Shown here one piece after another: positions 63,603 through 63,888 of a stretch of DNA of 64,000 bases (positions are counted from its first letter, which is position 1; the number at the start of each line of letters is the position of its first letter). Source of the DNA: Escherichia coli (GTDB taxonomy: Bacteria > Pseudomonadota > Gammaproteobacteria > Enterobacterales > Enterobacteriaceae); assembly GCF_045037415.1 (NCBI RefSeq), contig NZ_CP173439.1; one strand, 5' to 3'. The translations under genes and the position numbers were made by a program. The notes under the pieces were generated by a model. The model saw nothing but the letters and a program-made list of their open reading frames with translations. It ran no database searches and had not been told where the DNA came from.

Positions 63603-63888
63603 GGGGTCCGCTTGGAAAACGGATTTTCCCACGTCAAGAGAATTGAGTTGAACGAGTGGTTACATCCAAGCCTGCTAACTCACTGAACGTAAAGGATGTA
63701 CGAAATGTTCCTACCGTCCGATAACCATTTGGCTTACTTCCGTACATTCCCTTGCGTAGATGTTCAGAATTGTACGATTTCGGACACCAAAACCGCTGTT
63801 GTCCCGCCATTCTGACGATTCCTGAAAGTCATTTGACTAAAAAATAGTCTTAACGTGGTTTATTTTCCGAATTCCAAGCGGCCCCCCC
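63603..63888. mobile_element. Miniature Tn3-derived element (TIME-like) with Tn21/Tn1721-type inverted repeats
   Basis: Left IR GGGGTCCGCTTGGAAAACGGATTTTCCCACGTCAAG (63603-63638); right IR reverse complement GGGGGCCGCTTGGAATTCGGAAAATAAACCACGTTAAG (63849-63886); about 210-bp non-coding interior. Confidence 0.6.

Follow-up and report, generated by a model that had tools for sequence, protein, structure and literature searches.

A miniature Tn3-derived element with a res-like core upstream of the colicin V genes on F-type plasmids of Escherichia coli

Introduction

IS101 is a 209-bp TIME of pSC101 that is mobilised by Tn1000/gamma-delta (Ishizaki and Ohtsubo 1985, as cited in PMC13367494). TIME244 is a 244-bp TIME with a putative Tn21-type res (Gomi and Yano 2026, PMC13367494), and IMU is a 288-bp integron mobilisation unit (Poirel et al. 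2009, as cited in PMC13367494). IMU was detected in 0.06% of genomes in the 2026 survey, in which larger plasmids were not examined de novo (PMC13367494).

The element described here lies close to the right end of a 64-kb stretch of E. coli DNA, referred to as the window. It is a genuine Tn3-derived miniature element (TIME), ordinary, common and unannotated on E. coli F-type plasmids. What appears to be new, judging from sequence comparisons, is that its interior is res-like and not an anonymous spacer. No published description was found in the openly readable papers searched.

No whole-element identity to IS101, IMU, MITESen1 or TIME244 (sequences from Table S2 of PMC13367494) was detected, and Smith-Waterman scores of the interior (8-10) were no better than those of shuffled sequences. 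Like IS101, the element consists of two Tn3-family repeats around res, contains no genes and has half-sites of the Tn3-type class (TGTxCGAxAxT), whereas its interior is dissimilar, its repeats are identical at 17-20 of 38 positions and its parent family is a different one. The res of IS101 is of demonstrated function, that of the present element putative. TIME244 has the same IR-res-IR arrangement, Tn21-like repeats (24-29/38), a plasmid-borne location in Enterobacteriaceae and inverted pairs around cargo. Its interior, however, is unrelated, and its res is Tn21/Tn1721-like (half-site GTCAG), in contrast to the Tn3-like half-sites of the element and to the divergent tnpA and tnpR of the autonomous transposons with the same repeats (hereafter, parents). 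The element is also much more frequent than TIME244, with about 10% of the complete E. coli genomes carrying most of it, compared with 0.94% of Enterobacteriaceae genomes for TIME244 (PMC13367494). IMU is of near-equal length and has Tn21-like repeats (25-30/38), but its interior is unrelated and a res similarity is unreported for it. The element would be a third res-carrying TIME beside IS101 and TIME244, and a candidate helper transposon is indicated.

Bounds and terminal repeats

Two inverted terminal repeats (IRL and IRR, Table 1) were found where the first-pass annotation had placed them, separated by an interior of 210 bp, in line with its estimate. Of the span proposed there (63603-63888), the left end held and the right end had to be moved to 63886, the final two C residues belonging to the flank. 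Both repeats are of the Tn3-family type (outer GGGG, inner ACGnTAAG). The two arms have 28 identities in the window copy, and the canonical IRL and IRR agree at 31/38 positions. When 63,670 pairs of 38-mers with the same spacing were compared across the window, the best reached 21/38 and none 24/38, so that the pairing of the arms is not a matter of chance.

The IRL of the window copy measures 36 nt because two nucleotides of the 38-nt family form are missing (2-bp deletion after position 20). Its inner box also carries a CT-to-TC change, with ACGTCAAG where the canonical IRL has ACGCTAAG, that is TCAAG for CTAAG, and 33 identities to the canonical IRL (GGGGGCCGCTTGGAAAACGGAAATTTTCCCACGCTAAG) are left.

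The repeats of the element matched the reference repeats of Tn21, Tn1721 and Tn3 at 29-30, 25-26 and 18-22 of 38 positions, respectively. The Tn21/Tn1721 subtype assigned earlier fits the repeat sequence and is limited to it, because tnpA and tnpR of the parents are divergent, as in the Tn3 type. The one-directional order res-tnpR-tnpA of the Tn21 subgroup was not found in the parents, in which res lies between the two genes.

Table 1. Features of the element and its surroundings (positions in the window)
Feature	Position	Strand	Sequence and remarks
Miniature element	63603-63886		284 bp, inverted Tn3-family terminal repeats at both ends
IRL, degenerate	63603-63638	+	36 nt, GGGGTCCGCTTGGAAAACGG--ATTTTCCCACGTCAAG
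Spacer between IRL and res-like core	63639-63684	+	kept among TIME copies; missing from the tnpA-tnpR intergenic region of the parents (alignments)
res subsite III-like	63685-63708	+	GAACGTAAAGGATGTACGAAATG; colinear with parent res, putative limits; adjoins tnpR start codon in parents
res subsite II-like	63715-63746	+	32 bp; inverted half-sites CGTCCGATAAC ... CCGTACA; putative subsite
res subsite I-like	63761-63786	+	26 bp, palindromic, TGTTCAGAATTG-TA-CGATTTCGGACA; adjoins tnpA start in parents; putative subsite
tnpA 3'-end remnant	63839-63848	-	about 10 nt, AAAAAATAGT; AAAAAACAGT of the parents encodes ...KKQS, stop inside repeat
IRR, intact	63849-63886	-	38 nt; reverse complement (inward reading) GGGGGCCGCTTGGAATTCGGAAAATAAACCACGTTAAG; counterpart of tnpA-proximal repeat of parents
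cvi-cvaC promoter-like site (context, outside element)	63540-63568	-	-35 TTGACT at 63568, -10 ends at 63540
cvi	63257-63493	-	
cvaC	62968-63279	-	

Distribution and genomic contexts

The search of a plasmid collection that the first-pass annotation had suggested was carried out with megablast against PLSDB and returned matches in 2352 plasmids and many contexts, with at least 80% of the unit present in 564 plasmids. Among complete E. coli genomes, 1342/5426 (about 25%) had any match and 537/5426 (about 10%) had at least 80% of the element. Nearly all places in these genomes (1589 of 1619) were on plasmids, and annotation of the element was found in none of the genome records. Its recognition is of practical value for annotation and plasmid comparison, the 286-bp element being very common and never annotated.

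The canonical unit of 286 bp was recovered between at least 16 distinct flank pairs, to the tally of which a metagenome scan with the IRR sequence contributed further copies, and is 90-100% conserved, interior included. Full copies adjoin cvi in colicin V and colicin B/M plasmids, a further full copy lies between an IS91-family element and a toxin-antitoxin pair on the Shigella boydii virulence plasmid, and plasmid pP393F10IncF harbours a second, inverted copy 2 kb from the first. The copy in the NR1/R100 backbone is truncated at element position 204, and this partial match recurs in many IncF plasmids of E. coli and Klebsiella. The element marks rearrangement boundaries in IncF plasmids of the colicin V, colicin B/M and R100 types and in the Shigella virulence plasmid.

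The DNA to the right of the element (window 63887-64000 and L005 6293-7310) carries a gene for a hypothetical protein of 93 aa and a RelE/ParE-CopG toxin-antitoxin pair. The hypothetical gene and a RelE fragment found beyond the element in the window are inverted in NR1, and the Shigella copy (L003), too, directly abuts an HTH/RelE-family pair.

The res-like core

About 105 bp of the interior (roughly 63685-63786) were colinear with the tnpA-tnpR intergenic region of four independent parents, with local alignment z scores of 10-18 against shuffled sequences. Because the interior aligns with the res region of transposons that carry the same repeats, the architecture of the element is IR-res-IR, and we infer that the interior represents the res site of the parent family, its function being assigned by homology. 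An IR-res-IR architecture would also explain the synteny breaks at the element.

The order of the putative subsites, with I on the tnpA side, II in the middle and III on the tnpR side, is that of the res sites of Tn3 and gamma-delta. The sequence TGTCCGAAA...TTTCGGACA of the parents has the same position and the same 32-bp length as the subsite II-like region. Aligned with the subsite I-like region, the parents have TGTACGAAACCG-AC-CGGTTTCGGTCA; the left half of this subsite is degenerate in the E. coli copies. At 63697, the half-site TGTACGAAATG differs little from the half-site CGTACGAAATG of Tn2 res (obtained from pCERC3), and CGTCCGATAAC is almost equal to TGTCCGATAAT of the same site. Despite these half-site matches, whole-site alignments to Tn2 res or to the IS101 interior were not significant (z at most 3). 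The motif TGT[AC]CG or its complement occurs four times in the element, compared with 0.22 expected, a number reached in 0/2000 shuffled sequences, and the half-site spacing of +18, +26, +20 and +20 in the better-preserved TIME copies equals the pattern of the parents.

The description of the interior as non-coding was upheld in that no conserved ORF was detected, the sole ORF (58 aa, minus strand) being broken by indels in other copies, and no transposase gene was present; it is refined by the colinear alignment, which identifies the interior with the res site of the parents. Over positions 236-284, the element agrees with the tnpA-proximal end of every parent; the TnpA C-termini of the parents read ...LYKKQS. 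A search of the element against Rfam gave no RNA family at threshold, the best E-value (0.32) belonging to a microRNA model.

Relatives and autonomous parents

A scan for the repeat tip in one genome per species yielded 93 loci, many from Enterobacterales and a few from Vibrio and Shewanella. Full-length homologues (n = 7, 69-75% identical) were present in Citrobacter, Cedecea, Xenorhabdus and a metagenome-assembled genome. The copy of Xenorhabdus yunnanensis (L056), 69% identical, is flanked by a clean 5-bp duplication (TAAAT|TAAAT). The remaining loci were mostly ends of larger elements, several of which encode a TnpA of about 1000 aa (NF033527, 1213 bits) with its C-terminus inside the repeat. 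In the parents, a serine recombinase gene is divergent from tnpA, with 125-160 bp between both genes.

Autonomous parents were found in Pantoea sp. IMH (L021), Vibrio furnissii (L077), Brenneria alni (L070) and Klebsiella pneumoniae plasmid pRHBSTW-00982_2 (L102), and in RefSeq they are labelled only as 'Tn3 family transposase'. They resemble the element in their repeats (up to 36/38), a homologous res and the tnpA 3' end beside IRR, and differ from it in carrying tnpA, tnpR and cargo. A TnpA more than 95% identical to that of the Pantoea transposon was encoded by more than 300 Enterobacteriaceae plasmids, and the repeat adjoining such a TnpA on the K. pneumoniae IncF plasmid (L102) is identical to the canonical IRL at 36/38 positions. 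The earlier description of the element as Tn3-derived and TIME-like is correct, because autonomous Tn3-family transposons with near-identical repeats exist; the whole unit, moreover, recurs.

Repeat-bounded elements of 3 kb were considered as minimal autonomous partners and rejected, as they contain either a frameshifted tnpR together with a truncated tnpA or an IS110-family insertion. These decayed derivatives are flanked by 5-bp duplications (ATTTA, TGTTA, TAAAT). The parent-type transposon of pRHBSTW-00982_2 (1185-10042) has a cargo of the oxidative-stress type, comprising OsmC, TetR, an alkene reductase, DsbA and thioredoxin, and three MITESen1-like repeats (at 11593, 14184 and 15061) are located just past its end.

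Mosaic copies and module boundaries

One and the same colicin V left flank was found with three different right flanks, in each case with the junction precisely at the IRR tip, and other copies likewise had one flank in common while the other flank was different. The element demonstrably serves as portable homology and as a module boundary, the DNA on its right side differing between plasmids. Parent/child SNP comparisons of the copies revealed mosaics that switch after position 185 (L137), within 33-67 (L002A), at 228-229 (L105) and within 144-179; in one recombinant (L127), the switch interval includes subsite I. A res-specific crossover was rejected as the source of the mosaics, the switches being scattered. 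Because their positions vary, homologous recombination is favoured over a single res crossover; together with transposase-type end events, it fits the pattern of mosaics and junctions better.

The retention of the element at a module boundary could also be attributed to a working cis-acting res that is served by a resolvase in trans and contributes to the resolution of multimers or cointegrates or to module exchange between F plasmids. The presence of all three subsites, with conservation in several genera, the shuffling of flanks among copies and the switch interval of L127, which takes in subsite I, would suit this explanation, but the 64-kb window encodes no serine recombinase, the other mosaics (L137, L002A, L105) cross over elsewhere, several junctions fall exactly at the repeat tip and hence outside res, and the left half of subsite I has degenerated in the E. 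coli copies. We regard a working res as an improbable reason for the retention of the element and prefer homologous recombination combined with end events.

The two inverted copies of pP393F10IncF (L002, 4009-6578) bracket 2 kb of DNA with fragments of IS66-family transposase genes and a colicin lysis gene, an arrangement that resembles a composite transposon, lacks a target duplication and has a 12-bp deletion common to both copies. The copy on the colicin V side is a recombinant: up to position 33 it is of the colicin V type, whereas from position 67 onwards it resembles its partner. In NR1/R100 (L004, 3953-4207), a truncated MITESen1-like repeat (GGGGGCAGTTTGGATATCGAAAATTATTGTAC) is followed by TATAA, a 13-nt repeat tip (GGGGTCCGCTTGA) and the canonical IRL with element positions 1-204. 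The TATAA-plus-tip junction of NR1 equals the colicin V one, which suggests that the latter arose from an arrangement of this kind by a 13-bp deletion. In seven metagenome contigs (L104, L109, L118, L123, L125, L127, L140), TTAAGACGATAATTTTCCTCTTACC, a perfect match to the inner end of the IS101/gamma-delta-type repeat region, is joined to element position 170 or to the IRR tip, pointing to a second kind of Tn3-family relic that is repeatedly associated with the element.

The colicin V promoter

The identity of cvi and cvaC was confirmed by the annotated genes of a plasmid with 100% identity to the window over 63301-64000. As noted in the first-pass annotation, the element lies upstream of the cvi-cvaC promoter: its IRL tip is about 35 bp from the -35 hexamer of a promoter-like site that overlaps a Fur-box-like sequence (GATAATGATTATCGT) and is the sole promoter-like site nearby. 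The accompanying suggestion that such an element can bring promoters was not borne out, as no sigma-70-like promoter was detected within the element on either strand; a terminator was likewise absent from it. The TATAAT (-10) sequence that precedes tnpR in the parents is kept in no TIME.

In natural colicin V plasmids, the element is either complete, truncated at position 57 (pMTY1887 type) or replaced by Tn2 from the tip onwards (pCERC3 type), and cvi, cvaC and the upstream region are still retained in the latter two. The comparison of ColV plasmids with and without the element that had been proposed yielded whole, truncated and replaced forms but no empty site: the IRL tip, if not more, is preserved at TATAA|GGGG in all colicin V plasmids encountered, including pCERC3, where the Tn2 repeat starts there. 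Because natural plasmids carry the element cut or replaced, it can be argued that cvi expression does not require it.

An influence of the element on the Fur-regulated cvi-cvaC promoter, either by read-through from a relic tnpR promoter or as an upstream element, would be in keeping with the constant position of the IRL tip, 35 bp from the -35 hexamer in every colicin V plasmid examined, and with the orientation of the ancestral tnpR promoter, which would point toward cvi. Such an effect is nevertheless highly improbable given that neither strand of the element contains a sigma-70-like site, that the TATAAT of the parents is not conserved in TIMEs and that cvi, cvaC and the upstream region persist where the element has been cut at position 57 or replaced by Tn2. 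The understanding of colicin V regulation is unchanged by the element.

In pCERC3 (L006, 3203-3240), the terminal repeat of Tn2 starts exactly at TATAA|GGGG, where other colicin V plasmids have the start of the element. This coincidence reflects either use of the same target or an adjacent deletion, mediated by Tn2, with its endpoint at the junction.

Origin and state of the window copy

The feature is very probably a non-autonomous deletion derivative of a Tn3-family transposon, and the window copy has no evident role in cvi-cvaC expression. A parent would have lost tnpR and the cargo on one side of res and tnpA on the other, so that both genes disappeared. What remains would be both 38-bp repeats, some 10 nt from the 3' end of tnpA and the res with its three subsites. 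Canonical 286-bp copies may be movable in trans by a cognate TnpA, for instance that of the transposon type found on the K. pneumoniae IncF plasmid, and their res may be usable by a matching serine resolvase.

That the two repeats are instead the facing ends of two separate truncated Tn3-family transposons with unrelated filler between them has next to no likelihood, even though the unit lacks a flanking 5-bp duplication and other Tn3-family repeat fragments adjoin it in NR1/R100, because the 284-286-bp unit recurs intact in unrelated contexts and other genera, with 90-100% conservation, interior included, in at least 16 contexts and 69-75% identity in other genera, and because the interior is homologous to the res of transposons bearing these very repeats.

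The window copy is probably a relic that has become fixed in the colicin V-bearing lineage of F plasmids. Both IRL lesions occurred in each of the colicin-V-linked copies inspected and in no other copy. Loss of 2 bp alters the spacing between the outer GGGG and the inner transposase-binding box, so that the IRL end is probably inactive. Neither a homologue of the parent TnpA nor a serine resolvase was detected by tblastn in the 64-kb window, the latter with a gamma-delta resolvase query. The flanks of the window copy (TATAA on the left, CCTAC on the right) differ, consistent with the earlier remark that clean 5-bp direct repeats could not be identified. Given the damaged IRL, the missing target duplication and the lack of matching enzymes in the window, the copy is most likely immobile, as judged from these sequence features, which agrees with the proposal that the insertion may be old.

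Copies with target duplications, for which the first-pass annotation had proposed a search, were not among the 22 full-length copies of the E. coli type (16 flank pairs). The 5-mer matches TATCA and ATAAA between copies were considered as split duplications and are treated as chance, because the reconstructed empty sites were absent from PLSDB; no empty site for the E. coli subfamily was found in PLSDB or among the colicin V plasmids. The case for mobility of the E. coli subfamily has its main gap here; a target duplication was seen in one distant homologue and in the 3-kb relatives.

It is possible, though we put this forward tentatively, that the element is the most abundant Tn3-derived miniature element of E. 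coli, that its canonical copies can be mobilised by transposons on Klebsiella and Enterobacter plasmids, and that it forms a recurrent, res-bearing junction for the exchange of colicin, toxin-antitoxin and virulence modules of F plasmids.

In Photorhabdus cinerea DSM 19724 (L009-L020), the repeat lies about 105-127 bp from many contig ends, which indicates that a related element has expanded to high copy number and interrupts the assembly. A stretch of some 140 bp at 7630-7777 of the window has at its end a repeat tip of 22 nt (7749-7770, minus strand) that equals the first 22 nt of IRL and then diverges. More than 5000 PLSDB plasmids contain this segment, and in one record it is covered by a 'Tn3 family transposase' annotation. 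It adjoins a gene for a ChaN-family lipoprotein and is probably the terminal remnant of another Tn3-family transposon.
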